Part shown: one piece after another, positions 2,464 to 63,012 of the stretch
Position numbering within the stretch: the first letter of the stretch is position 1
Layout: every line of letters begins with the position of its first letter
IMG/VR virus record: IMGVR_UViG_3300014613_000021
Location: 24,407-88,406 of that record
From: a virus
Lineage: Duplodnaviria > Caudoviricetes
Direction: 5' to 3' (one strand)
DNA: 64,000 nucleotides
Notes under the pieces: generated by a model
Databases searched by the model: none
What the model saw: only the letters and a program-made list of their open reading frames with translations
What the model was told of the DNA's origin: nothing
Program-made: the position numbers and the translations under genes

Positions 2464-3824
2464 TTTCCACCCATTTTAGCTCTTAACTTTTCCCTGAGTT
2501 CTTCTCTTTTTCTTGCAAGATCGTCCTGTACATTATCAGACTTTGTTTCAGAAGAGGATTCTTCTTTTTTTATAGTTGTTTTAACATTCTCTTTACTTTC
2601 TTTTTTCCAGGGAATTTTTTCTTTCTCAACAGGTTTTTCAGGTTCTTTTTCTTCCGGTTCTTCAGATTTTCTTTCTTCTTCCAAATCCGCAAGTTCCTCA
2701 CGAATAGCCCCACGAATATCATCGTCAGAATGACTTTGTGTTACCATTATCGGGAGGTTGTTGTCACGAATAAATTTTTTCAGGTCTTTCCTTCCCATGT
2801 TATCAAGGTCAACGTCACTTGAAACATTTTCTTCCGGTTCACCATCTTCTTCTTTTTTGTCAAACGAAAGGTCTGATTCAGGTTCATCATCATTGATATT
2901 GCCTGCGTTTTCTTCTGGATAATCATCGCTATCACTTTCTTCATCAGAATCAGGATAATATCCGGCAATCTCCTCAACAATATCAAGCCACTCATCATGT
3001 GCAAAAACACCGATCTTGTTTTGTTCATCAAAAATACGTAACCCTTCAAGAGACTTTGTAAAATCTGAAGTGCGGTATTTGAAAATTTCCTGTAATGGTT
3101 CAAGTTCCATGAAGTCCTCAAGTTGTTTTTCAGTCAACTGGTACTTTCCCCTCCACTCCAAAGAAAGTTTGTAATAATCGTCTTTTTTCTTCTCTTTGTT
3201 ATTATAAACAATAATAAGAGCCTTTCCATCGTCCGGATCAGAAAACGGATCGGTCATAATTGGTTCATCTGCCTGTTCTCCAATACACAGGTTATTCATT
3301 TTTTCAGCAGTTCTATCTGAAAACTCAAGTCTGCCAAATTCTGAACCACTTATTTTCAGTTTATCGGCGTAACAAACCCATGATGTTTTTGCGGATATAC
3401 CCTTTTCCCAGTCCGTCATCGGAAAAATAAGTTTCGCAATTTCTTTTTGTTTTTCTTTTTCAGTTGCCTTTGACGGACCGTTTACTTCATCTGTAATAAG
3501 ATTTGTAGCAAACTTAATATATTCTTCAATCAAATCTTTTTCTGTCTTAGCATGTACTTTTGAATTGAAAATAGGTCTTCTGACAATTTCTTTTACACCG
3601 TCTTTGTCGATTTCCTGCGGAAGCCAGTGTACAACCTTCGGAACAATAAAAGAATCATGTTCAGGATAAGCCGGATACAACCTGAATTTATTTGTTCCAA
3701 TATCAATGTCAAGATAACCGGGTCTTCCTGAATTTTTTTTCTTTACAACAATACCAACTTCTTTCATCTTCCCTTTTAAGACTTCAACAGAAGTGGCTTT
3801 AAACTTTGATCTGTCAATTTTCAT
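2460..3824 (-). CDS. gp32-like single-stranded DNA-binding protein with long acidic C-terminal region
   Basis: GTNKFRLYP...VHW N-terminal pattern, very acidic tail, located between nuclease and UvsY-like gene. Confidence 0.6.
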   Translation of the reverse strand: MKIDRSKFKATSVEVLKGKMKEVGIVVKKKNSGRPGYLDIDIGTNKFRLYPAYPEHDSFIVPKVVHWLPQEIDKDGVKEIVRRPIFNSKVHAKTEKDLIEEYIKFATNLITDEVNGPSKATEKEKQKEIAKLIFPMTDWEKGISAKTSWVCYADKLKISGSEFGRLEFSDRTAEKMNNLCIGEQADEPIMTDPFSDPDDGKALIIVYNNKEKKKDDYYKLSLEWRGKYQLTEKQLEDFMELEPLQEIFKYRTSDFTKSLEGLRIFDEQNKIGVFAHDEWLDIVEEIAGYYPDSDEESDSDDYPEENAGNINDDEPESDLSFDKKEEDGEPEENVSSDVDLDNMGRKDLKKFIRDNNLPIMVTQSHSDDDIRGAIREELADLEEERKSEEPEEKEPEKPVEKEKIPWKKESKENVKTTIKKEESSSETKSDNVQDDLARKREELREKLRAKMGGK

Positions 3825-14176: not shown

Positions 14177-15826
14177 TTAAAGAAAATCAAATGAAAATGA
14201 TTCATTGACATATTTACAAGCCAAAATAGCTAACCATAACGAATAAACTGTATCATCATTTTCACTTATACTTGCAAGTCTGTTTTTATCAGTCCATGTT
14301 ATACTACTTAATTCTGATGCAACTACATCTGTCATATCTCTTGACTGTGCGTCACCTCTCGGAAATTTCATCCTGCTTTGTTCAAATAAAATAGCCAGTC
14401 CCGGTAACCCTTTATCCAAATCAAACTTATTTGTTCCAGTTGTATGAGGAACAACATTCAAATTTGAATCATTTGCCAAATCTATCATTACTTTCTGAAA
14501 AGCGTTCGCCTCTGCCATAATTACGTCAGGAAGAAAATTAGCCTTTATTTGTTTTAACATTGCAATCTGCTTACTATAATGAACCCCCTTTTCTCTCCAA
14601 TACCACAACAACCAATAATTGTCAAGTTCATCAATCCCTATTATTGTATAAACTGTATAATCGGCATCCATTTTTTCAGAAATAGCAAAGTCACAACCAA
14701 CACCTATTTTAACAAATTTTTTCTTAAATGAAAATATATTAGGTGTCATTATATAATCATCCATCCCTACAAATGCTTTTCTTATAATCTCATAAGGGAA
14801 AATAGAATTAGCATCTGAAACAGGAGTCACAAGTATTTCTCTTGAAAATTTAATTGAACCCTGTGAATCTTTTTTATCTAACAAATCTTGAAGTGTCCAT
14901 CTATCTTCCCACAACAATTTTCCATTTGGAAAAACACCAGGATACTCAAAGACCCTCCACTTAGGATTAACTTTTAAATTCCCGTATAAATCTTTTTCAT
15001 GGAATGGTGTTCCGATAACCTTAACCTCACCGGCCTTTAATACCATGTTCATTATTTCAGAATGGAAAACTTCTTCAAACTTTTCTCTCTGTTCTAATGA
15101 ATATAAAGCTGATTTATTCAAAAAATCATCTACAACAATATAACCTGGATGAAACCCCCTTAAGGAACTATCAAAAGCTCCAAGCATTAACATTGCTCCA
15201 TTTAAACAAGTTACCCCGTCCTCACCCCAACCTATTTTACCAGGATACAGTCTCTCTCTCAATATATTGTTGCCTTCAACTTCTTCTCTTATAAATTTTA
15301 ATAAATGCCTTGATAATTTAAACCGATTAGTTATAAGCATTCCAAGTTTAGTTAATCTTGCAGAAGGGGTATTTGGTTTATGTTGATACATTTTCCACAA
15401 AAGATATGCAAAAGAAAAAGCATGAGATTTACCATGATCTCTGGCCGCAAGAATACAAAGAAACCTGTGAAGTTGAATTAAATTAAACCATTCAATATGA
15501 TGCCAGCTTACATCAAACCCCGAAAGACAACTGATAACAAAATAATTAAGACTTATACACCTTAATTCTTCTTCTACATCTTTCGTTAAATATTGAAGAT
15601 AATCAAATGTTAAGTTTTTTATGGGTTTAACTTTACATGAAAAAGCCTTCAATGTTTCGTCTGTAAGAACCTTTAAAATTTTATCTATATCCGTTTCATT
15701 CCCTGAAAACAACTCGTTTAGTGCCTCCGGAGAAAGACTGGAAATAATTTGTTCAGTAAACTTATAGGATTGATTTATTTCTTCAATAGAAATAATTCTT
15801 TTTTTTGGAAGAAAAACCTTTTTCAT
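14177..15826 (-). CDS. terL: terminase large subunit
   Basis: AARDHGKS Walker A, LRGFHPGYIVVDD Walker B, IGTP, GCDFA and DDTVYSLWLA nuclease motifs. Confidence 0.92.
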   Translation of the reverse strand: MKKVFLPKKRIISIEEINQSYKFTEQIISSLSPEALNELFSGNETDIDKILKVLTDETLKAFSCKVKPIKNLTFDYLQYLTKDVEEELRCISLNYFVISCLSGFDVSWHHIEWFNLIQLHRFLCILAARDHGKSHAFSFAYLLWKMYQHKPNTPSARLTKLGMLITNRFKLSRHLLKFIREEVEGNNILRERLYPGKIGWGEDGVTCLNGAMLMLGAFDSSLRGFHPGYIVVDDFLNKSALYSLEQREKFEEVFHSEIMNMVLKAGEVKVIGTPFHEKDLYGNLKVNPKWRVFEYPGVFPNGKLLWEDRWTLQDLLDKKDSQGSIKFSREILVTPVSDANSIFPYEIIRKAFVGMDDYIMTPNIFSFKKKFVKIGVGCDFAISEKMDADYTVYTIIGIDELDNYWLLWYWREKGVHYSKQIAMLKQIKANFLPDVIMAEANAFQKVMIDLANDSNLNVVPHTTGTNKFDLDKGLPGLAILFEQSRMKFPRGDAQSRDMTDVVASELSSITWTDKNRLASISENDDTVYSLWLAILACKYVNESFSFDFL

Positions 15827-16462
15827 CTAAATTTCAAATGTATCCCTGAACCTTTCTTCTTTTTTTTCTTCTTTTACAATAACTGTGCTTTCTCTAAAGC
15901 AATTTGCAAAATATTTAAATAAGCGCATTGTTGCCTCTGTATCTGGCATAGCTCTGTGAGCGTCCACAAGATTAAACCCGGATTTCTGACAACAAGTACT
16001 TAACTTATGGTTTTTCATTGTATCATCCAATCCCCATTTTAATCTTGAGATACACATAGTATCCCACATAAAACTATCCACAACAGAATATAGGTTTTTC
16101 TCACAAAACTCAAAAGCATATTCAAGAAATGGTGAGTCAAAACTTTTAAAATTATGTCCAACCATTTGAATCTTTTTATACTTACCCATCTTTAACATTG
16201 AAAAGGCTTCGGTTAATTCGTCAACTATATCTTTTATCTCTCTTCCTTCTTTCTCAAGTAATTCAGGTATTATTCCTGTTACCTTTTGAGCTTCTGGACT
16301 GTAAAATAAGCCATTATAATTTTTTACTAATGATTCATATCTATATATTTCTTCCAAATTAGTATCAAGAAATATAATAGCTATTTCAGTTATTGGGTTT
16401 TTTTCAGCAGAAAAACCTCCTGTTTCGAGGTCTATTACTGCAAAATTATTGTCATAAATCAT
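15827..16462 (-). CDS. DEDDh 3'-5' exonuclease (DnaQ/epsilon-like)
   Basis: IDLETGG, GHNFKSFD, HRAMPDTEAT. Confidence 0.9.
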   Translation of the reverse strand: MIYDNNFAVIDLETGGFSAEKNPITEIAIIFLDTNLEEIYRYESLVKNYNGLFYSPEAQKVTGIIPELLEKEGREIKDIVDELTEAFSMLKMGKYKKIQMVGHNFKSFDSPFLEYAFEFCEKNLYSVVDSFMWDTMCISRLKWGLDDTMKNHKLSTCCQKSGFNLVDAHRAMPDTEATMRLFKYFANCFRESTVIVKEEKKEERFRDTFEI

Positions 16463-16594
16463 TTGAGATAATTTTTTTTATTAATATTTAGTTTTATTTC
16501 ACAATCTTTATAATTTTGTTATTCATTTCACTGTATTTTAATTAATTAAAATTTAAAAAAGTAATAAACGAAGTTAACTACCACTGCATATTAG

Positions 16595-17377
16595 TTATAA
16601 GCCATTAGCCCAACGCTCTGTTGCTTCCTTATATATTTCCGTGTCCAATTCGCTTAATATCCATTTTCTATTTAAACTATCTGCCACCTTACCCGTAGTT
16701 CCGCTACCACCAAAGCAATCAAATACAGTCTCGTTTTCATAAGAATAATATCGTATTACATTTTCCGCAAGTTTTTTTGGGAAGGATGCTGTGTGCCAAC
16801 TTTTGGTTTCGGGTTGTATTTCCCACACGTTAGTTCGTTCATATTCACCGTTCACAAAGCTGTTATTTTGTAGTACCTTATCAATCAAAAAATTGGCTTT
16901 TTTCTTAAATACAAGTACATATTCTGTAACTATGTTCGGCTTGTATGCTACTGGCTTTCTATGTCTGTAAAACCCACCATTTCTATTCGCTGCTGCTCCA
17001 TCAGGTTTCTTCCAAATTATATCTTCCAAAAACTCAAAGCCAATTTTCTCCATCATTGGTACAAAGTAGTAAGGTAATGGTATTCGGTAGCTTTGTTCAC
17101 TACGTTTCTGCCTCTTTACAAGTACAGGGCTAATATTAATTACACACATTCTACTTGGTTTTAGCACTCGTTCAATCCCAAAAAAAACTTGCTCCATTTC
17201 GTGCATATAATCCGCTACACTACTATATTGGCTGTATTCTCTTGCATTGTAGTAAGGTGGCGAAGTGAACACTAAGTCTATGCTATTATCATCGAGTCTA
17301 TTTATAGTTTCTTTACAGTCCTCATTCCAAAATTCCCCACGCTCAAATAACGGCTTATAACACGTGGTTAACGTCAT
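16595..17377 (-). CDS. DNA methyltransferase, beta class (N4-C/N6-A family)
   Basis: DLVFTSPPY motif IV before DCFGGSGTT motif I; start uncertain (ATG 17377 chosen over TTG 17428). Confidence 0.9.
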   Translation of the reverse strand: MTLTTCYKPLFERGEFWNEDCKETINRLDDNSIDLVFTSPPYYNAREYSQYSSVADYMHEMEQVFFGIERVLKPSRMCVINISPVLVKRQKRSEQSYRIPLPYYFVPMMEKIGFEFLEDIIWKKPDGAAANRNGGFYRHRKPVAYKPNIVTEYVLVFKKKANFLIDKVLQNNSFVNGEYERTNVWEIQPETKSWHTASFPKKLAENVIRYYSYENETVFDCFGGSGTTGKVADSLNRKWILSELDTEIYKEATERWANGL

Positions 17378-17487
17378 TGCCTTTTTCTTCGTTGATAATT
17401 TCTTGGTTTTCCATGTTTTGTATTTCAATTAAAGTTTGTACTAAATTTAAGGTCGGCAACGAACGCCAACCGTCAAACATTATAGCC
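17352..17487. repeat. attC-like imperfect inverted repeat B
   Basis: Minus-strand arms GGCTATAAT..GGTTGGCGTTCGTTGCC and GGCAATGACGTTAACC..GTTATAAGCC enclose an AT-rich loop. Confidence 0.7.
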
Positions 17488-17812
17488 AATATGAAATAAA
17501 CTTACCAGCCATAAATAAAAGTCCGAATATTGCAATTAATCCTATCATTTCAACGCATTTATTTTGGAAGTGCTGTTTAAACGATAGCTTTGACCTACTT
17601 ACACATTTACCTGAATAAGATAAATGTATCCTTATCCAGTAAGTCATTTCAATTGCACTATCAATATTACCTTTGCAAAATTGAATAATCATCCATCCTA
17701 TTTCCCAAAATAAATGCTCAGCCCAGTTAAACATACTGGCTATAATACCGCATAAAACCAATAAAGGTTTCAGTGCATTTCGTAGGTTAGTAATTCTATT
17801 TAAGTATTTCAT
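17480..17812 (-). CDS. hypothetical membrane protein (cassette gene)
   Basis: 110 aa with hydrophobic segments; starts inside the loop of site A and ends in the arm of site B. Confidence 0.6.
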   Translation of the reverse strand: MKYLNRITNLRNALKPLLVLCGIIASMFNWAEHLFWEIGWMIIQFCKGNIDSAIEMTYWIRIHLSYSGKCVSRSKLSFKQHFQNKCVEMIGLIAIFGLLFMAGKFISYWL

Positions 17813-17871
17813 ATATTGATAATTAAGTGTTTCAAATTCCTTTACTGGTCTTATGCAAAACGTTATAAAAC
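17737..17871. repeat. attC-like imperfect inverted repeat A
   Basis: Minus-strand arm TGCATAAGACCAGTAAAGG pairs with CCTTTATTGGTTTTATGCG (16 of 19 Watson-Crick, differences G-T compatible); flanked by TATAAC/ATTATA cores. Confidence 0.72.
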
Positions 17872-18126
17872 AGTTTGCGAATATCGTTTCAGTGTTTTAC
17901 CGCAAATCTGGCATTTATCAGTAAATGTTTTTTCAATCGGAATTGCACAATCGCAAACCGATTTTATAGCAGGTATAACACAATTTTTTGCTTGCGTTAG
18001 TGCTGCTATAATGTCATTGCAATTAATAAGCATTTCTGCTATTTGCTTTTTAGGCAACTTCATATACATTGCCATTTTTTCTTCTTTTGTCTGTTGTACT
18101 ATCTGTAACATATTTTTAAGTTTCAT
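17863..18126 (-). CDS. hypothetical protein with C-terminal Zn-ribbon-like mini-cassette
   Basis: CDC...CQIC; the last ~35 codons lie within the 17862-17970 cassette. Confidence 0.55.
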   Translation of the reverse strand: MKLKNMLQIVQQTKEEKMAMYMKLPKKQIAEMLINCNDIIAALTQAKNCVIPAIKSVCDCAIPIEKTFTDKCQICGKTLKRYSQTVL

Positions 18127-18180
18127 AGTCTTTAATTTGTTAATATATATGTATATTTTCGTATCTACATATCAAAAATT

Positions 18181-18426
18181 TCACTCACCTAATAACCTAT
18201 AAACCTTCACTCCCGCAAAACGCAAATCAAGAGGCATTATTTCATTTCCCCCTAAATATGGAGGTAAGTAACCTCTCCTGATATAACCCTGAACATCAGA
18301 AACAGTAAAAGGGACACCTGATTTTTTCTTTCCAAATTTCTCATTTAAAAAATTAGTAAGCTGTGTTAATGTAAAATCTTTACCTTCCTGAATAGTTTGT
18401 TTCTTGTTTTCCATTTCATAAGACAT
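18181..18426 (-). CDS. small winged-HTH/MerR-like DNA-binding protein
   Basis: TLTQLTNFLN...FTVSDVQGYIRRGYLP. Confidence 0.5.
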   Translation of the reverse strand: MSYEMENKKQTIQEGKDFTLTQLTNFLNEKFGKKKSGVPFTVSDVQGYIRRGYLPPYLGGNEIMPLDLRFAGVKVYRLLGE

Positions 18427-29808: not shown

Positions 29809-30726
29809 CTAAATTATTGTTGAAGTTCTTATTATATCACTCAATTTTGTCTCAACAATAAATTCAATAAAAACAGCATCTTCCTGTTGTTTTACATTTG
29901 TTATTTGTATTGATTTTATTGAATCCTTTGTTTGGAATGTATTGTAAATCTGTCTTATTAATGCAGGATAATAAACAGAACCGATATTCGTTCCTGCAAC
30001 TAAAGAAACCTGCATTCCGTCTTCAGGAAACTCAGGGTTGTCGCCTTTCTTTAAATTAATAAGCGTTTCAATGGTTTGTGTTATTGTTTCCCTATAAGAC
30101 AAAACCTTTAAATCATTATTTTCAAAAGTAAGTTTGTTATAAATGTCAATTCCATAAATATTTTCTCCAGTAAGATTATCAACAACAGACTGTATATCTA
30201 TCGAAATATTATTTTGAAAACTGATTTTTGCTACATAACCGCCTTCAGGAGTGTAGTCTTCCTCCTTTATGTCGTTTCTTAAAGCCACATTAACCCAATC
30301 ATTTTGTTCATCAGAATAACCGGCTTCCCGTGACATTCTTTCTAATGTCTGATTCTGTCCAAGTACTTTATCAACTTCAACAAAAGGATTAAAATTATTA
30401 TTTGTTATTGAACTCCGTGACCACCTTGAATAATTACTTATTGTAAGTAATGAATCAGCAACAGATTGAACAGCATCAATTAATTCCCAGAAATCACCTG
30501 TTGTGAACTTATTCTTATTTGAAGCAAATACGGATTCAATTTTCTTTGATTCCTTTATAAGTCTTTCCAATTCATTAAAAGCGGCAATATTCGGCTTCAA
30601 AGAATACCCCCGATAATAATTAAGTATATATTGTTGTTTTTCGTCAACAAATGATGTAAAATCAGCTAAATAATCAGCTAATTTATACTTAGTTATCTTT
30701 TGAAAATTTTCAACAGTCTCTTTCAT
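29809..30726 (-). CDS. baseplate wedge protein with C-terminal gp25/gpW-like domain
   Basis: TITQTIETLINLKKGDNPEFPEDG; directly upstream of baseplate J. Confidence 0.6.
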   Translation of the reverse strand: MKETVENFQKITKYKLADYLADFTSFVDEKQQYILNYYRGYSLKPNIAAFNELERLIKESKKIESVFASNKNKFTTGDFWELIDAVQSVADSLLTISNYSRWSRSSITNNNFNPFVEVDKVLGQNQTLERMSREAGYSDEQNDWVNVALRNDIKEEDYTPEGGYVAKISFQNNISIDIQSVVDNLTGENIYGIDIYNKLTFENNDLKVLSYRETITQTIETLINLKKGDNPEFPEDGMQVSLVAGTNIGSVYYPALIRQIYNTFQTKDSIKSIQITNVKQQEDAVFIEFIVETKLSDIIRTSTII

Positions 30727-30731
30727 TTTTC

Positions 30732-31493
30732 TTAAAGGAATCTTCTTTTTATGTCGCCCCCTAACTGATTAACGCCATTCTGCAAATTGTCAACTGTTAA
30801 CGCTGTTGCCAAACTTCTTCTGAAATTACTTATCAAATTATCCAACGGAGCTATCGCCTTAAATTGAAGGTTATAATTCCAAAGCATATTCCTGTCTCTT
30901 TCATTTGCATCAACAGTGAGAACCATTTTCTTTACCAACCAACTTTCACTTAACGCAAGGTTGTAAAAATATAATTTAAAAGGCTTATTATCAATGCCAA
31001 CCGAATTGGACTTATCGCAAATACTCTGTAATATTTTTAAACACCCAAATCCGGTTTTTATTGAAGGATCAAAAGCCATTGTTTTTATTTCCGATAAAAC
31101 GACTAAATAATTAGACTTTTTATAAACGCCAGCGTCAGCAGAATAACGTATTGCTGAAAAATCCAGTGTTTTGCCTGACCGATTTAAAATAACCTTAAAT
31201 TTCCTTCCAAATGTTCCCTGAATTGTTATTTCTTTCGGCACAAAAACAGAACTTGAAACCGAAACAACACCTCCAGCAGTTTGTTTTACATTTGTTATTT
31301 CCGGTTCTGTTTGTGAAATGCTACTTGGAGAAACCGGAAAAGAAAAATAATCAATGGTCATTCCTCTACTATCAACTAACTCCAAAGCAACCATATAATA
31401 CTCAAAATCATTTGGGAAAAGCATGTTTAACCCTGCCTTTCCAATAGAACTAAGTAAACCAGAATATCTACTTATAGCTTCTGTTTCTGCCAT
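30732..31493 (-). CDS. baseplate hub/tube-initiator-like protein
   Basis: FPVSPSSISQTEP...TIQGTFG...WNYNLQFKA. Confidence 0.55.
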   Translation of the reverse strand: MAETEAISRYSGLLSSIGKAGLNMLFPNDFEYYMVALELVDSRGMTIDYFSFPVSPSSISQTEPEITNVKQTAGGVVSVSSSVFVPKEITIQGTFGRKFKVILNRSGKTLDFSAIRYSADAGVYKKSNYLVVLSEIKTMAFDPSIKTGFGCLKILQSICDKSNSVGIDNKPFKLYFYNLALSESWLVKKMVLTVDANERDRNMLWNYNLQFKAIAPLDNLISNFRRSLATALTVDNLQNGVNQLGGDIKRRFL

Positions 31494-32038: not shown

Positions 32039-32830
32039 TCATTTTAGTATTTGAGCTACTTTTTCTTTTAAAGCTAAAATCGTTGCACTATTCAACAGAG
32101 GCATATTTCCTAATGAAGTTGCCACTGTTGAAATAGCAATTTCATCTATTGTATCATTTAATAAATCAAATATCGAATAATCTCCGTTTCCTAAATTCAT
32201 TTTTTTAAACTGTCCTGTTAAATCACCCTTTTCTTCTATCTTAAAAATATTTTCAAATCCGTTATTTTTAATATCTTGGACTTTAATATTCAGTTCTTGT
32301 GTAGAAAATATATTTACCTTCCCTTCATTTTCAATATTAATGATTCCCTTTACATTAACATTAACCTGAGATTCTTTGTTTACATTGGAAACATTCATGT
32401 AAACATTTCCTCCGTCTTTCAAACTTGAATCAATATCAATGAAAAAATTTCCTTTATTACCATCACCAGTTATTATAACGCTTCCGGTTTCGGTTATTTT
32501 AGCAAGCCTGAACAAATTTCTTGCTAACCCTGATTCCTCGTCATTCTTATCTAAAACAGCTATTATAATAGGCGTATTGCTGACATATTGATTAATGAAA
32601 ACAACACAACTCCCTAATTGCATATTTTCATCCGGGAAATCAATTAACTGTAAACTCCACCTGTCAACTTTTACATTTAATAAAAACTCATTATCTTCAG
32701 TTATCATGGCAACCATACCAGTACGATAACAGGTTTCAATGTAAGCGTTAATATTTGTTTTTGCCGGAACAGTTACATAACCGATCCCAACCGTATATCT
32801 TGCGCTTTTTATTCTTACTGTTTTTTTCAT
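32039..32830 (-). CDS. baseplate central spike (gpV/gp5 OB-fold-like)
   Basis: FPDENMQLGSCVVFIN...PIIIAVL followed by beta-repeat strands. Confidence 0.55.
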   Translation of the reverse strand: MKKTVRIKSARYTVGIGYVTVPAKTNINAYIETCYRTGMVAMITEDNEFLLNVKVDRWSLQLIDFPDENMQLGSCVVFINQYVSNTPIIIAVLDKNDEESGLARNLFRLAKITETGSVIITGDGNKGNFFIDIDSSLKDGGNVYMNVSNVNKESQVNVNVKGIINIENEGKVNIFSTQELNIKVQDIKNNGFENIFKIEEKGDLTGQFKKMNLGNGDYSIFDLLNDTIDEIAISTVATSLGNMPLLNSATILALKEKVAQILK

Positions 32831-35239
32831 TTATTCGTCAAATTGTCTCCGCTTCAAAAAGAAATTGAAAACCTTCTCATTAACCGCAAAGTTAGTTTTC
32901 AGTTTTGTACTCATTTTTGTTTCAATAGTATCTTCACCGGGCTTCGTTAACCTCTCTATGATAAAATCTTTTATTGCTTTACTGTCAACGATATTAAAGT
33001 AACTTATTTCACCTGTTAAATAAGCCTTTTTCATTCCCCTGCTTACCGATAATGTAGTAACCCTGTCTATTGAACTTGTTGAAATAGAAAAATTATTGCT
33101 CACAGCATCTACATAAAATATTTCATCTGTCAGTTCAAACTCAATCCATGTTCCTCTTTTTATTCTCCTGTCACCATTGATTGTTATTGTTCCAGACCGG
33201 GTAAAAGGAACGTAAGCATTACAATCTATCAAAAACTTCAAATCATTAACAACCTGTTCAAGAAAATAATTTCTGTCCTCTGACCATTGTTCTCCTTCAA
33301 TACCTGAATAAGAAATATAATTAGAAACAACAGAAAGTCTTTTAGCCCCCCAAATATTAGCATATAACGGAAAATAAACAATCGGAATATACGCAAGTGC
33401 CATTTGATTTGCAAGACCTAAAAACGCTCCCTTCGGTTGTATCTCATAAAAGGAATAAATCCCATCTTCTGTATATGATAAAGATTTACTTAAAACATCA
33501 GCCGGACTAATTGAAAGTAATATTGATTTTCTTTCTTTCTTTAACTCCACATTAACAGGAGTATTTATTTGACCTCTTAATTGTACCTGATTTAATAAGT
33601 CTGGGGTTTTTTCGGCATAACCTACTTCATCTTCACCAGGCAACGTTTTGTTTATAAAATCAAGAACAGCCCTTCCGGTAAAAGGAGGCTGTCGAACCGT
33701 ATAATAAAACTCGTCTCCATAAGTATCGGTCATAAATTCAACAAATGGTTCTTGACATACCTTCCAGACAGAATTTATTAAACTACCATCAGGCTGAGAA
33801 ATACTTGAATCAGCGATCCGTCTGTCAGCAATGTTTTCATCAAATAAAAGTTTTATTATCTGCCAAATTCCTTCATGTAACCTTTCAGAAAATAATTTAG
33901 GATTTTCATTATTCAGTCTATAAACATACGTTCTCCTGTCAATAACCTCACCCTTTAATTCATATCTATAACTCGTAAATAAATCGTCTGGTACAATGCC
34001 TAAATTAGCCAAATGATTTATAATAAATTTCATTACATCCGGTATTGAATAAAATGAATAAGCCATTAATAATTCATCATATTTACCAGATGAAAAAAGT
34101 CTTTTAATTAACCTATCGTCTTCCTGTGTATTCAAAAAAATATCAGTAGCGTATTGTAAAGCGTAAAAATAACTCCCGTCTTCAATCAGCGGTTTTATTA
34201 AATCCCTTCCGGTAATACTTATATTAACATCATTTGAACCGTAATTTGTGGCCAAAGTGTTTGAATCAACAAGACCAATCATGTCATAAATCTGATTTGC
34301 TATTTTAGACTTTGACACATTCATACTAAATTCCTTAGTCCTTAGTTTTTCTATTTCAAGTTTCTCAAATTTTATGAAAACAAGGTCATTAGTATTGATT
34401 ATCTTGTGAAACAAAAAATCATTCTCTTTTATTTTTCCCTGAATTATTTTAAAAACATTTGAATCAGAAACAAACCCATTTCCTGACCTCAATACGCTTC
34501 CTTTTGTTATTGGCGCAAGCGACATACTGAAATTACCGCCTGTCTTTGTGACATTGATAGATATATTTTCAATGAACGGGGTTATATCAATCATACTCCC
34601 ATTTGTCAAAAAACTCTCATCAAACCGTATTTTATTAAAATCTACTCCTGTGTTTACCTGTTTATGTTGTCTTACCTGATTTAAAAGCTCCGAAACCTGA
34701 GCTTCTGTATATTCGTCCTGTGGATACTCTAAACTCCTTACCCACATCCATACCGTTATATACGGGTAAATGTCCTGTACTGCTGAACCACCCCTTAAAT
34801 TATATTTTACAGAAGGCGTATATAAAGGATCAGAAAGTAATTGTTCGAGTTTGTCAGCTAAAAATGTAGTGAATTGTCTTTGAGTAGCTACCTGGTTTTT
34901 ACCTGTTATTGCAAGAGCTTCACGGTTAGCCTTATCAGTTGGAATAAGAACGGTTGTGTTTACTTTAAAAAGTATTGCGCCAAATTCACTAAACAAGGAA
35001 AATTGAACACTTAATTTATAAGTAAACTGATTTATTAATCCTTCATATTGTTTGCTTTCCAATACATTGTATTTTTCATAAATACGTTCAATATTCATTT
35101 TATCAGTGTCACCCTTATAACTCAAAAAATCTTTTATACTCATTCCCTTTGCAACAGAAGTGGCACTACTCAAAAACTTTGAAACAGTATTTATTTCAGG
35201 TGAAATATGGGGGTGTGGTATGTAGGGTTTGTTGTTCAT
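32831..35239 (-). CDS. baseplate hub protein
   Basis: 802 aa after tape measure; ITGRDLIK, CQEPFVEFMTD, GTITINGDRRIKRG, FYVDAVSNNF...TTLSVSRG. Confidence 0.65.
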   Translation of the reverse strand: MNNKPYIPHPHISPEINTVSKFLSSATSVAKGMSIKDFLSYKGDTDKMNIERIYEKYNVLESKQYEGLINQFTYKLSVQFSLFSEFGAILFKVNTTVLIPTDKANREALAITGKNQVATQRQFTTFLADKLEQLLSDPLYTPSVKYNLRGGSAVQDIYPYITVWMWVRSLEYPQDEYTEAQVSELLNQVRQHKQVNTGVDFNKIRFDESFLTNGSMIDITPFIENISINVTKTGGNFSMSLAPITKGSVLRSGNGFVSDSNVFKIIQGKIKENDFLFHKIINTNDLVFIKFEKLEIEKLRTKEFSMNVSKSKIANQIYDMIGLVDSNTLATNYGSNDVNISITGRDLIKPLIEDGSYFYALQYATDIFLNTQEDDRLIKRLFSSGKYDELLMAYSFYSIPDVMKFIINHLANLGIVPDDLFTSYRYELKGEVIDRRTYVYRLNNENPKLFSERLHEGIWQIIKLLFDENIADRRIADSSISQPDGSLINSVWKVCQEPFVEFMTDTYGDEFYYTVRQPPFTGRAVLDFINKTLPGEDEVGYAEKTPDLLNQVQLRGQINTPVNVELKKERKSILLSISPADVLSKSLSYTEDGIYSFYEIQPKGAFLGLANQMALAYIPIVYFPLYANIWGAKRLSVVSNYISYSGIEGEQWSEDRNYFLEQVVNDLKFLIDCNAYVPFTRSGTITINGDRRIKRGTWIEFELTDEIFYVDAVSNNFSISTSSIDRVTTLSVSRGMKKAYLTGEISYFNIVDSKAIKDFIIERLTKPGEDTIETKMSTKLKTNFAVNEKVFNFFLKRRQFDE

Positions 35240-37991: not shown

Positions 37992-38630
37992 TTATAAATT
38001 AAAAACAGCAAAAGCCTTTTCAAGTTCAGATTGTTCCGTTGAAGAAACCTCAGTTTTGACTCCTTTCTGAAAAACATCATTTGAATAAACCCCAATAACG
38101 CCATCAGAAAATTTAACATGAATATCACCGTGTTTTGGATCAATCTTCACAACCTTACCCGATTCACCTTGTTTCTTTTTCGGATCGGTCGTAAGTGTTT
38201 TAGGAATAGTGACCGTACTACCTATTTTTACTCCACCTTTAAATTCTAATTTATCATAGTATTTAAACAATGCTGCCTCATATCTTTCTTGTGAATCAAA
38301 TTCATATCTTTGTGGTCTCACTAATTTACCTGATTCTTTTTGTAAAAGCTGTCTTTTTACTTTGTGCATTTCTTCTTTTTCAGAAGATTTTTCTGCACCA
38401 AATTTCTGTCCAACCCTGCCTAACTTCCGGTTTTCAGGAGTATCGGCATAAATACCGGACTTGGCTTTCTCCAATTCATCTTCCTGAACTTCTTCAAAAC
38501 TAAGTTCAGTTTCAGACTTCTCAATCTGTTCTTCTTTTTTATCTATTTCAAAAGTTCCAGTGAAACCCTTGTAAATAAGAGACTGTTGCTCAAATCTCTT
38601 TCTTTTTATTTCTTCCCAAATCATAGTCAT
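37992..38630 (-). CDS. inserted modular protein ([12 protein letters not shown] motif + SH3/KOW-like domain)
   Basis: [22 protein letters not shown] shared with the prohead protease extension; VKIGSTV...GKVVKID...IHVKFSDG. Confidence 0.65.
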   Translation of the reverse strand: MTMIWEEIKRKRFEQQSLIYKGFTGTFEIDKKEEQIEKSETELSFEEVQEDELEKAKSGIYADTPENRKLGRVGQKFGAEKSSEKEEMHKVKRQLLQKESGKLVRPQRYEFDSQERYEAALFKYYDKLEFKGGVKIGSTVTIPKTLTTDPKKKQGESGKVVKIDPKHGDIHVKFSDGVIGVYSNDVFQKGVKTEVSSTEQSELEKAFAVFNL

Positions 38631-38637
38631 ATATGTA

Positions 38638-39141
38638 TTAGCTTACCGGTAATAATATTGGATTGAGATAAGTAAATGACTGATCCATTCCTGAAATCTG
38701 ACCTTCACTTATATCAAAAGACTGACTGTCTGTAAACGCCCCAAAAATAACAGCAAAATCACCATTTTCTATCTCCGTAACAAGTCCTGTCGTAGCGTCA
38801 ATGCCTGATACTGTTGCCTGTTTTTTATAAATATAAATATCAACCCCATTCTCCTGAAGTAAAAGACTGTTTACAAACTCCTCAACAACACCCGTTTCTC
38901 TATGGACAGACTGGGGAAGTCCTGTTGAAACTAAATCAATCGTATAAAATGAACAAGTCAGTGTTCCATTCCACGAAAGAGCCGGTTTTTCCTTTGGAAG
39001 AAGCTCTCCAAGCCCTCTTACATCACCTCGCTGTATATTTTCTGTTACCCGAATGTTTTTCATTTTGCCAATAATCTGACCACCTGCAATAATTATTGCA
39101 AGAGGGGCTGTCATTACCGCTGTATTTGTACTTGATGGCAT
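38638..39141 (-). CDS. tail tube protein
   Basis: IIGKMKNIRVTENIQRGDVRGLGE; directly after sheath. Confidence 0.85.
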   Translation of the reverse strand: MPSSTNTAVMTAPLAIIIAGGQIIGKMKNIRVTENIQRGDVRGLGELLPKEKPALSWNGTLTCSFYTIDLVSTGLPQSVHRETGVVEEFVNSLLLQENGVDIYIYKKQATVSGIDATTGLVTEIENGDFAVIFGAFTDSQSFDISEGQISGMDQSFTYLNPILLPVS

Positions 39142-39175
39142 AACTGTAAAATATTAAATCCTAAAAACCAATTTC

Positions 39176-41149
39176 CTAATTAATCATAAATCCTGTAAAG
39201 AAAACCTTCGTTATCTCACTGTTCGGAGTAAACTTATATGTCACCTGATACGAGTCTTGAACTTTAGTTACATTAATAGTTGCAGGATAAAATTTCTTTA
39301 TCAAATTATCTGTCGTTGGAGTGATTGTCCTGGATTGCAAATAACCAATCAGCCAGTCACGTACCCTTTTAGTTGAAAGAGTATATTGATTAACTCCCGA
39401 AGGATTCCCAAATAACTGATTTTTTGCATTAATAACAATCTCCTTGTTCAACTGAGAAGTTATGTTTTTGATTTGAATAACATGAGACGTTCCATCATCA
39501 TTTATCTCATAATCATTTCTTTGAAGTGAATTAACATCCTGAACAATAACGAATTTTCCAAAATCACTGTCATATTCAGTGCAAAGAACTCCATTATCCA
39601 AACATTGAATTTTTTCTTTCTTTGAAAGAACATGAGTTTCTTTGTTATGACCAAGTGACTTAAATGTTCCGGGTATCTGTGGAGCCTGTCCGGCAATACG
39701 ACCAAGAACTTCAGCAGCCTTATAAATAGCCGGATAGTTTTTAAACCCTGTCGAAGCCCACTGAGTTGAAATACCTACTCCACCGTGAACAACCCAAACA
39801 CGGTCAGAATCATAATACTGAGCTGTTGGAATTGATCCGTAAGTCTGAGTAAACTTAGTTGAGTCTTCACCGCCGCCAACAACAAGGAATTTTTCAAATT
39901 TCGCCTCATTAACTATATGGGCAAGTAATTTTCCGTTATCAGCACTTTGAGCATCATCGCCATAATCATTGCAAAGAATAAATGTAAAATCATTCTCCGT
40001 AACAGCGTCCAGAACCTCATCCAGTTTTGTTGTGCTGTATGTTTCTGTCCCGCCATAAGCAAGGTTATAATCTGAATAATTGGTCAAATCACCGGCAACA
40101 AACGCCCCTGTTGCACTTGATGTTTCCAGTTTAAAATATTGATTAAACGTAGAATTGTTTGTCATCCACGTAATAAATTCCTGAACAGTTGAAAATTCCG
40201 GTGACTTAACATAAAGAAGTGGAACAGCATCGTCAACAGAAATATTATCCCACGGATCACCGTCAAAATCTTCACCTTTATATGTTCCCCTGTAAAACTT
40301 AAACAAATATTTTGTAGCGTCAATTTCACCAGCTTCCATTACAGCAGCAAAACCACGTGTAAGATTTACTCCATCAACGCCACCAGTCAATGTAGCTGGT
40401 GCCGTTCCTGTTGCCGTTCCGGTAACGACATAAGTTCCTGTATAAGCGTTTGCGTCAGAAGCAACCTCGGTTCCTCTCGGCTGTCTCGCTGTTACCGTTA
40501 TAATAGCAGCGTCTGAAGTAGCCGTATAACCATGTGTTCCAGTCAAGTCATTAATAGCCTCTGCAATTGCAGCAGCAGTTAAATCAATAGAAAGGGGGAC
40601 AGCCGGAACTGTATATGAACCAAGCGTTATCAACGTAGCCCCTTCTGTTATTTTTGGTGTATGTGTGTCACCAGTCGCACCAACCGCTGTAACGGTATAA
40701 TTTCCTGTTGCCAGGGTTTCATCTTCCCTTCTTCCATTTCCAACAATACCTTCATCTCTCATCTGGATTGAAGCGGCTCCATTCGTGAAAGTAAAAACCA
40801 TATTTGCGCAAGTTGTCGTTGCAGCTCTCGCAAAATAAACATTCGGAACACCCCTTGAGGCATATCCGTCCGGAAAAAATAAAGGAAGTCCAAGCAACCA
40901 CCACAAACCGCCTTTTGTTAATGACCTGTAATCAGCAATATTATCAACCGAATAAATTGAATCAAGTCCTGTTAAAAGTTCCCCGTCAATACCAGAACCA
41001 CCACCAAATTCAGCTCCATTTCCAGTATCAATGATTAAAATACGGCCAAATGTTGCCGGTGAAGGAGGGTTTGTTTCACCTGATTTTATTGTGGAATATG
41101 CACCCGGAAGTTCAATTGTCGTTCCGTCAAATACAAATTTAGTTGCCAT
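39176..41149 (-). CDS. contractile tail sheath protein
   Basis: FVFDGTTIELPGAYSTI N-terminus, C-terminal sheath domain; 657 aa. Confidence 0.9.
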   Translation of the reverse strand: MATKFVFDGTTIELPGAYSTIKSGETNPPSPATFGRILIIDTGNGAEFGGGSGIDGELLTGLDSIYSVDNIADYRSLTKGGLWWLLGLPLFFPDGYASRGVPNVYFARAATTTCANMVFTFTNGAASIQMRDEGIVGNGRREDETLATGNYTVTAVGATGDTHTPKITEGATLITLGSYTVPAVPLSIDLTAAAIAEAINDLTGTHGYTATSDAAIITVTARQPRGTEVASDANAYTGTYVVTGTATGTAPATLTGGVDGVNLTRGFAAVMEAGEIDATKYLFKFYRGTYKGEDFDGDPWDNISVDDAVPLLYVKSPEFSTVQEFITWMTNNSTFNQYFKLETSSATGAFVAGDLTNYSDYNLAYGGTETYSTTKLDEVLDAVTENDFTFILCNDYGDDAQSADNGKLLAHIVNEAKFEKFLVVGGGEDSTKFTQTYGSIPTAQYYDSDRVWVVHGGVGISTQWASTGFKNYPAIYKAAEVLGRIAGQAPQIPGTFKSLGHNKETHVLSKKEKIQCLDNGVLCTEYDSDFGKFVIVQDVNSLQRNDYEINDDGTSHVIQIKNITSQLNKEIVINAKNQLFGNPSGVNQYTLSTKRVRDWLIGYLQSRTITPTTDNLIKKFYPATINVTKVQDSYQVTYKFTPNSEITKVFFTGFMIN

Positions 41150-62798: not shown

Positions 62799-63012
62799 CA
62801 GACAAGTCTACGGAGATCGGCGAAATGAATGCCACCTTTGAGTTTTGAGGCTCAAATATTTCCCATTCGCCTGAATATTCCATCCCGACAGTCAGGGTGG
62901 TTTTTTTTGAAAAAAAGACTATTTTCCCGAACCGACTATCGGTACGGAATATTCCGTTTTCTATTCTTCCGGCAGGATTGGAAGAATATTTAATTGTAGC
63001 CTGGACTCTCAC
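62767..63012 (-). CDS. hypothetical protein
   Basis: 81 aa; GTG start in the same 30-bp leader as recA. Confidence 0.55.
   Translation of the reverse strand: MRVQATIKYSSNPAGRIENGIFRTDSRFGKIVFFSKKTTLTVGMEYSGEWEIFEPQNSKVAFISPISVDLSDAEKDKKGQG

Follow-up and report, generated by a model that had tools for sequence, protein, structure and literature searches.

A Probable Orphan Array of Integron-like Gene Cassettes, Partly Decayed, in a Lytic-Type Phage Genome

The Locus

The stretch of DNA considered here (the window, 64,000 nucleotides) comes from an uncultured phage of Bacteroidota type, is the final 64 kb of an 88,406-bp linear virus record in IMG/VR, rated 78% complete, and carries, between a small gene (ORF81) and the gene of a DnaQ-like exonuclease, three open reading frames (ORFs), ORF87, ORF110 and an N6/N4 DNA methylase, with two hairpins between them. 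This region is interpreted below as a probable array of integron-like gene cassettes (Table 1). Every gene of the array region lies on the minus strand, which is called the gene strand in what follows; the whole genome, searched as a sequence of ~88.6 kb and designated L085, has several further sites outside the window. The DNA of the terminase region is ~71% identical to that of Bacteroides phages DAC and SJC, and a search with the terminase returned one syntenic relative only (L006), with 30–47% protein identity over at least 11 genes. Because the homologues of ORF81 and of the exonuclease directly adjoin each other in L006, where positions 16463–18180 of the window have no counterpart, the latter can be regarded as an inserted or variable island. 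Searches of viral contigs with the exonuclease and with ORF110 gave no match.

A sequence-only reading of the window had described three consecutive units whose ends are reverse complements of each other, separated by two hairpins and bounded by half-sites, and each of these statements was borne out. In the methylase unit, 16594–16607 pairs with 17348–17361 at 13 of 14 positions; codons 6–9 of the gene, whose product matches Pfam N6_N4_Mtase (E 2.5e-40), fall in one of the inverted cores, and its last three codons and stop in the other. In the middle unit, which encodes ORF110 (13 homologues, with a Pfam domain in none), 17479–17493 pairs with 17732–17746 at 14 of 15 positions, the core ATTATAGCCA/TGGCTATAAT being exact, and in a third, the mini-unit, 17862–17880 pairs with 17951–17969 at ~16 of 19 positions with one indel. 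Of the two hairpins between the units, that at 17735–17871 is the best of such a layout genome-wide. No hairpin is present beyond 16594, and at the left end the hairpin of ORF87 has neither its 5′ arm nor the GTT of its core, which leaves half-sites at both outer edges. Of the triplets in the window's cores, AAC is replaced once by AAT and GTT once by ATT, and a further GTT has been deleted. The motifs GTTATAA and TTATAAC are not enriched genome-wide, with 12 and 18 copies in 88 kb.

Table 1. Features of the array region, its neighbours and matches of the covariance model R1 (described below). Positions refer to the window unless L085 is named; the caret marks a junction.
Feature	Positions	Strand	Description
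Putative methylase cassette	16594–17478	-	attC-like hairpin, core GTTATAAGCC, N6/N4 DNA methylase body, complementary end GGCTTATAAC^
attC-like element, methylase cassette	17350–17488	-	loop holds ATG 17377; left box GGCTATAAT (AAT not AAC), right box GTTATAAGCC; R1 match, gene strand, 58.9 bits, E 6.5e-11, full length
Putative ORF110 cassette	17479–17861	-	hairpin, core ATTATAGCCAGTATG, ORF110 body, end CATATTGGCTATAAT^
attC-like element, ORF110 cassette	17735–17871	-	20-bp stem, two G.T pairs on gene strand; loop holds ATG 17812; R1 match, gene strand, 70.4 bits, E 1.6e-13
Mini-unit	17862–17968	-	ORF87-type cassette body, ends TCGCAAACTGTTTTATAAC^; 5′ core without GTT triplet
N6/N4 DNA methylase	16595–17377	-	260 aa from ATG 17377; phrog_67 DNA methyltransferase
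ORF110	17480–17812	-	110 aa, two hydrophobic helices, membrane-like, no family
ORF87	17863–18126	-	fused, decayed cassette
R1 match	L085 14721–14859	gene strand	E 2.1e-15
R1 match	L085 14405–14472	gene strand	E 3.1e-06
Left island edge	18127–18180	-	between ORF81 and ORF87; no AAC^ junction, no 5′ hairpin arm
Right backbone	16463–16593	-	after last junction AAC^TAATATGCAG.. to exonuclease start; no hairpin, no attI-like consensus match
ORF81	18181–18426	-	first in transcription order of genes around array
DnaQ-like exonuclease	15827–16462	-	3′ of methylase in transcription order
Large terminase	14177–15826	-	after exonuclease in transcription order

The Same Units in Other Contexts

The methylase protein matched 5 viral and 59 metagenome loci, the metagenome relatives being examined as the flanks around the matched genes. 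In about 25 metagenome contigs, the DNA similarity to the window (81–94.5%) was limited to 17362/4–16594/2. Nearly all methylase relatives end ..AATGGCTTATAAC on the gene strand and diverge from the next base onwards, and the right flanks after TTATAAC represent 24 distinct contexts. On the other side there are 23 distinct left contexts, each reaching as far as ..(T)AAC, and the cassettes become alike at the next base, so that conservation jumps at AAC^ from ~40% to >90%. The left AAC^ is followed in these relatives by a stem GTGTATGAG.AGTAGCGG, ~71 nt with an ATG and ~17 codons, a return stem CCGCTATT.CTTATACAC, the core GTTATAAGCC and the methylase body; the hairpin of the window's methylase is unlike the one joined to the same body elsewhere. 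The ORF110 cassette was found in three contexts, i.e., the window, L073 and L074 (87% protein identity), which have exactly AAC^GTTTTGCATAAG ... GGCTATAAC^ in common. The comparison of related sequences that had been suggested for the array thus revealed variation exactly at the cores, both for the methylase (~23 left and 24 right contexts) and for ORF110 (three).

The observation that the middle unit has ATT/AAT at its ends was likewise confirmed, since L073 and L074 carry GTTATAGCC and GGCTATAAC (GTT/AAC) where the window has ATTATAGCC and GGCTATAAT (ATT/AAT). The reading depends on the position of the crossover: with a crossover past the C, this is a double change of the compensatory kind, and with one between A and C, as in integrons, the T is part of the next cassette. 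What did need correction was the extent of the cassette, which had been taken to be the unit alone. Because the junctions fall at AAC^ before the hairpin and again after the body, the mobile unit is the hairpin together with the body that follows it, i.e., 17479–17861 and 16594–17478. The converse arrangement, a body with its downstream hairpin, was considered and rejected for the methylase and for ORF110, in which the upstream hairpin stays with the gene.

A tblastn search with the methylase against 50,697 phage records gave no match at 1e-30, and in 185,579 species genomes one close match only was found to the cassette, on a 4.5-kb contig.

A Family of Structured Sites

Related loci totalling 324 kb were searched on the gene strand with a scanner that looks for AAC, a stem within 8 nt, a return stem and GTT; it gave 105 elements, compared to 4 in shuffled sequence. 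The 80 non-redundant elements have the consensus ..T-AAC and GTTA(T), with spacers of 4–6 nt and 1–3 nt, and their AAC-to-GTT distances cluster at 115–118, 79–82 and 40–49 nt. In 46 of the 80, an ORF of at least 40 codons starts inside the element. The seven-base cores of integrons are not those of the family, as RYYYAAC fits 9 and GTTRRRY 7 of the 80 elements, in agreement with the deviation from GTTRRRY that had been pointed out for the window. At the six variable positions that follow GTTA in the core, the match to the cassette's own end is 6/6 in 28 of 51 cassettes, as compared to 1 of 51 with random partners.

The 27 long elements, whose stems differ, align to an 18-bp helix with 95.6% of the cells paired, a percentage that is partly given by construction since the scanner selects hairpins; no such inflation affects the covariation, nor the model searches, which were run on unselected DNA. 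Compensatory changes were seen in 16 of the 18 stem pairs, and the covariation score was 0.85, compared to 0.18 in shuffles and ≤0.17 in slid registers, which answers in the affirmative the question of whether the hairpins are conserved as structures. One G.T pair is invariant (27/27) and a second is frequent. The gene strand is taken as the folding strand because the invariant G.T would be an A.C mismatch on the other.

As proposed by the sequence-only reading, a custom covariance model (R1) was applied. It was built from the 27 elements of other contigs, with none from the phage's own genome and none homologous to the hairpins of the window. In the whole 88.6-kb genome, R1 gave four significant matches, all on the gene strand, and both hairpins of the window were among them (Table 1). 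The cluster at L085:14405–14859 adjoins a PAPS-reductase-like gene. A further cluster of shorter elements, at L085:487–930, flanks a gene of ~90 aa and has the ends GTTAGCAAC / GTTGCTAAC and a short hairpin with the loop TCGTTTTAATG. A strong 19-bp hairpin of another kind, ATTCCGTACCGATAGTCGG / CTGACTGTCGGGATGGAAT, with a 36-nt loop and without AAC/GTT feet, is found at 62876–62956 of the window on the minus strand, and may be a terminator.

ORF87, a Fused and Decayed Cassette

ORF87 is composed of a constant N-terminal module, 18136–17968, which corresponds to the loop and 3′ arm of a long hairpin element, and of a variable C-terminal body, which is the mini-unit of the first description. Over the former stretch the window is 92–95% identical to L008–L010, and the similarity is confined to it. 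In L008–L010, the stretch forms the ~190-nt loop and 3′ arm of a long element starting AAC^GG..GCAGGTATGACA, within an ORF87-type cassette in which GTTATGGGT is paired with ACCCATAAC^. The window has no 5′ arm of this type, and a different body follows the 3′ arm. The same organization is seen in the 38 homologues of ORF87, in which the first 48 residues are near constant and at least 8 unrelated C-termini all start right after ..NCVIPAV. Since P0015 and P0017 read PAVIKSVC and the window reads PAIKSVC, the window has, as judged from this protein alignment alone, most likely lost the GTT codon of the core.

Several C-termini of the ORF87 family are zinc-ribbon-like. The N-terminal module (window 17968–18136) also has 85% DNA identity to a gene in L007 (LR756500.1, a 462-kb uncultured phage) at 3001–3109. 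L009:3349–4960 contains three copies of an 80–90-nt palindromic element, GTTGTGTGCA..TGCACACAAC, and one half copy between small genes, and these copies adjoin a C5 methylase, directly upstream of the ORF87 relative.

A Linked Recombinase and Its attI-like Site

The statement that the window is free of an integrase could be extended to the whole record, and no tyrosine recombinase was found in five related viral records. Among the 92 ORFs flanking related arrays, many of which encode DNA methylases, there was one tyrosine recombinase (L033:5182–5979, 266 aa, Phage_integrase E 2e-35), which starts 52 nt past the last junction of the densest array. It scores 185 bits with archaeal XerA (“recombinase/integron integrase”), 149 with TIGR02249 (cut-off 265) and 147 with XerC/XerD, all under the cut-offs, and the closest solved structures are XerC-like and (archaeal) XerA proteins. 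Its alignment to IntI4 falls into two pieces with ~48 IntI residues unmatched between them, at the place of the IntI-specific insertion. A more distant relative (36% identity) was noticed at L013:9543–10115, downstream of three elements, on a contig fetched via an ORF87 relative.

Relatives of the L033 recombinase were fetched from viral contigs irrespective of hairpins, which yielded 80 loci, many of them on contigs of 100–460 kb. In these loci R1 gave 183 matches, all of which precede the recombinase gene and share its strand, and the scanner, run on the recombinase strand of 59 viral loci, found 215 elements upstream (275 kb) and 5 downstream (355 kb). Between the last cassette and the recombinase gene lies a conserved attI-like site, AAC^TATTATATAT(C/A/G).., located 42–43 or 51–52 nt before the ATG in 33 distinct loci. 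Close copies of the window's three proteins were not found in the sampled recombinase-linked arrays.

The terminal junction of the window does not match this site, its position-weight score being −13.8 compared to 6.1–16.0 for true sites. When the 3,738 AAC sites of the phage's own genome were scored, the top value of 14.7 (the next being 6.5) fell at genome position 13359, at the end of the second cluster, that of the R1 matches near 14.4–14.9 kb; the site there (L085:13230–13372; window coordinate ~ −11047) reads TGTTGCTAAC^TATTATATATACACAACC. An ATG follows 42 nt past it, and the reading frame MENTDYYEI-stop corresponds to the recombinase start MKKTDYYEIC, with TGT changed to TGA; the homology is gone after ~14 codons, and the remnant lies 28 kb from the array of the window. 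Because of this attI-like site and remnant, it is concluded that this phage lineage once carried the recombinase and has since lost it. The search for a recombinase in the rest of the genome, as had been advised, hence met with a mixed outcome: no intact gene was found, and in its place there is the ~14-codon remnant with its attI-like site, with a cognate Xer-like family in other phage contigs. This family and its site, the remnant, and the fact that the hairpin travels with the downstream gene, often carrying its start codon, are new beyond the sequence-only reading. A literature search found no description of the recombinase-linked system; its coverage was incomplete and it is not proof of novelty.

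At this point an alternative has to be weighed, namely that the hairpins are PeSL-type regulatory cassettes, i.e., promoter/terminator or translation-control hairpins of the mRNA, and that the genes are shuffled by homologous recombination without a dedicated recombinase. Ribosome sites and start codons do lie inside the loops (46 of the 80 elements), the G.T pairs would hold just as well in RNA, as G.U, the phage itself is without a recombinase, borders at both feet of the hairpins (see below) fit an exchange inside conserved sequence, and the PeSLs of T4-type phages flank ORFans in variable regions and give mini-circles (PMC2839356). PeSL crossovers, however, lie at variable points in homologous sequence (PMC2839356), whereas in the present family adjacent stems differ, and yet the junctions fall at the same base after only 4–5 shared nt. 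Homologous exchange does not predict the cassette-specific complementary ends, nor that a tyrosine recombinase and an attI-like site are linked to the elements so tightly and with such polarity. This alternative is considered unlikely.

Elements of the Family in Phage P12002L

Integrase-free clusters of attC sites were reported in virulent phages by Qi et al. 2023, including methylase cassettes in Polaribacter phage P12002L (PMC9892861). The primer for one of its sites, P12002L_attC1, reads TGCTAAC-GGCTAC-GGCTAAACGG-TCGTTTTAATG-CCGTTTTAGCC-ATT-GTTAGGC, and this was the one of six sites without attC x attI1 recombination by IntI1 (PMC9892861). Located at L087 30015–30046 on the gene strand, the site represents the short form of the family, and its 11-nt loop TCGTTTTAATG recurs 14 times in related loci, each time on that same strand. 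The P12002L elements were missed by model R1, although the scanner and the primer sequence do show related ones. On the minus strand of L087 (P12002L, a cultured virulent Bacteroidota phage), short and long elements lie around methylase genes at 30015–30046, 30926–30936, 32278–32922 and 38087–39242, and the ends of the gp54 cassette match (GTTACCTA / TAGGTAAC).

Clusters of attC sites without an integrase are known as CALIN (IntegronFinder 2.0, PMC9024848), and the two full sites of the window, as given by model R1, lie 385 nt apart with no integrase present. A second alternative is thus a classical CALIN, i.e., ordinary bacterial cassettes that were made or moved by a host IntI and picked up by the phage. 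This would account for the R″-L″-loop-L′-R′ layout, the AAC/GTT triplets and the complementary cassette ends, and CALINs with N6_N4 methylase cassettes do occur in virulent phages, where HattCI called the above-mentioned short site of L087 an attC (PMC9892861 supplement). It is contradicted by the seven-base cores, which so few of the elements have, by the genes, which lie on the folding strand and start inside the site, and by the near absence of the methylase cassette from the species genomes; moreover, the linked recombinase has no ~48-residue IntI insertion and scores under the integron-integrase cut-off, and P12002L_attC1 was the very site that failed with IntI1. A classical CALIN is therefore rated as still less probable than PeSL-type cassettes.

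Proposed Mechanism and Its Weighing

The region is interpreted, with a probability of roughly 0.8, as an array of integron-like gene cassettes that is orphaned and in part decayed, within the genome of a lytic-type phage. On the gene strand, a cassette consists of ..TAAC^, a spacer of 4–6 nt, a stem of 18–20 bp, a loop (usually carrying a ribosome site, an ATG and the first codons), the return stem, a spacer of 1–3 nt, the core GTTAxxxxxx, the body, and the reverse complement of the core, ending ..TAAC. The recombinase would cut the folded gene strand at the 5′ AAC, much as IntI acts on the bottom strands of attC sites. Cassettes would be excised as circles, their own two cores pairing beside the hairpin, and the circles could then be inserted at the attI-like site. 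The cargo, mainly DNA methylases, may serve the escape from host restriction. Without a recombinase gene, with two mutated cores (ATT/AAT), a deleted GTT and mere half-sites at its outer ends, the array of the window is probably frozen unless a co-infecting phage supplies the enzyme.

Several observations and limits have to be set beside this interpretation. As many as 75 inverted pairs occur in 3.5 kb, among which the repeats at the unit ends rank only 15th and 22nd, so that inverted unit ends are unremarkable alone. Thermodynamic folding of the two hairpins as single sequences gave z scores of −0.9 to +1.0, i.e., near 0; because each loop measures ~71 nt, the folding energy does not mark the hairpins. 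A second type of border, at the GTT side of the hairpin, occurs with the methylase of the window, in L028 and among the bodies (at least 8) of the ORF87 family, and a single crossover at AAC does not explain it; such borders could be due to low-frequency recombination of the other strand, or to homologous exchange within conserved hairpins. No conserved extrahelical bases or bulges were seen in the stems of the 27 elements, which align in register. PF00589, a Y1 transposase (PF01797) and a serine recombinase were looked for in the phage's own record (78% complete) and none was found. The failure of P12002L_attC1 with IntI1 fits a different enzyme and proves nothing for an L033-type recombinase. 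Both the viral status of the contigs and the host range of the element family rest on the classification by IMG/VR, and the recombination, the circles and the choice of strand are deduced from sequence comparisons. To these may be added the hairpin selection by the scanner and the reading of the lost GTT codon from proteins, both mentioned above.

The high number of inverted pairs and the folding scores near 0 would also suit a third explanation, chance inverted repeats in AT-rich DNA combined with ordinary terminator hairpins. This explanation, to which hardly any probability is assigned, is already refuted by the recurrence of identical junctions in dozens of contexts, by the counts in shuffled sequence (105 elements vs. 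4), and by R1, which was trained on other contigs and matched with E-values of 1e-13 and 6e-11. The pattern is far beyond chance, and the case for cassettes, as it stands, is made by the comparison with other sequences. The two findings that the sequence-only reading had named as able to overturn it, i.e., a lack of variation at the cores and a lack of structural conservation in the hairpins, were both sought, and both comparisons favoured the integron-like cassettes.

With less confidence than for the array itself, it is considered more likely than not that the window's array belongs to an undescribed phage-borne lineage of integron-like platforms, with the proposed components of a small Xer-like recombinase without the IntI domain, an attI-like site at a fixed distance, and coding-strand sites that double as translation start and N-terminal exon. 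This lineage would be widespread in large phages, with up to at least 17 elements per 7 kb, and would mainly stockpile and swap DNA methylases and small accessory genes.

Integrons are regarded as bacterial platforms. The records from phages have so far been of scattered attC-like sites without an enzyme (PMC9892861). If the proposal is true, the sites described here would constitute a large, coherent family that has a recombinase and primary site of its own in phage contigs, and cassette capture would be a phage-autonomous route by which accessory genes are gained and reordered, and the predominance of methylases in the cargo would point to a fast adaptation to host restriction systems. The sites would supply start codons, and the constant N-terminus and many C-termini of the ORF87 family would represent protein-level domain shuffling at a recombination site. 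It would also become clear why orphan clusters are all that IntI-based tools detect in phages of this kind, and a directly testable pair of enzyme and site would be at hand.

Comparison with Known Systems

The array shares with integrons the imperfect palindromes whose structure is conserved over sequence, the AAC/GTT at their feet, the cassette start that is complementary to the start of its own site, and the crossover at the triplet. Further likenesses are the better folding of one strand and, in other phage contigs, the position of arrays next to the gene of a tyrosine recombinase, from which a candidate primary site (the putative analogue of attI) separates them; DNA methylases are also the cargo of the CALIN clusters reported in phages. 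The cores here, however, are TAAC/GTTA(T) and not RYYYAAC/GTTRRRY, and whereas extrahelical bases in the L arm of an integron attC set the strand that is recombined, the stems here have an invariant G.T pair instead. The site lies ahead of its gene on the coding strand, and the start and N-terminus of that gene are often encoded within it, in contrast to the integron, where the gene precedes attC on the non-recombined top strand. In addition, the site lengths are quantised, and the recombinase is Xer-like, with 266 aa and without the insertion specific to IntI, its gene following the array downstream on the strand of the cassette genes. The system would work like an integron, yet it lacks several of the features that define integron membership.

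The PeSLs (Arbiol et al. 2010, PMC2839356; Comeau et al. 2014, PMC4122927) resemble the present elements as phage-borne stem-loops with expression signals that flank small accessory genes in variable regions, for which gene shuffling via small circles has been proposed, likewise in a phage without an integrase. They are near-identical promoter and terminator motifs with homology crossovers at variable points, unlike the present family with its variable stems, its junctions at one invariable base, the self-complementarity of its cassette ends and its link to a dedicated family of recombinases. Single-strand transposons of the IS200/IS605 type are marked by a Y1 HUH transposase and by subterminal hairpins at both ends; here there is no PF01797, each unit has one hairpin, and the linked enzyme is a tyrosine recombinase.

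Xer-dependent modules (the dif/pdif modules of Acinetobacter plasmids, and IMEX) are comparable in being small gene modules that tyrosine recombinases of the Xer type mobilize at short sites. Sites of the dif type are 28-bp duplexes with two 11-bp arms and a 6-bp spacer; those described here are folded palindromes of 60–140 nt instead, and no dif-like site was seen. Sedentary chromosomal integrons, such as those with the Vibrio repeats, have long arrays of small cassettes with sites of uniform length and related sequence, and in all of these respects the present arrays are alike. The Vibrio-type arrays differ in being chromosomal and IntI-dependent, with genes that occupy the non-recombined strand and are followed by their site.

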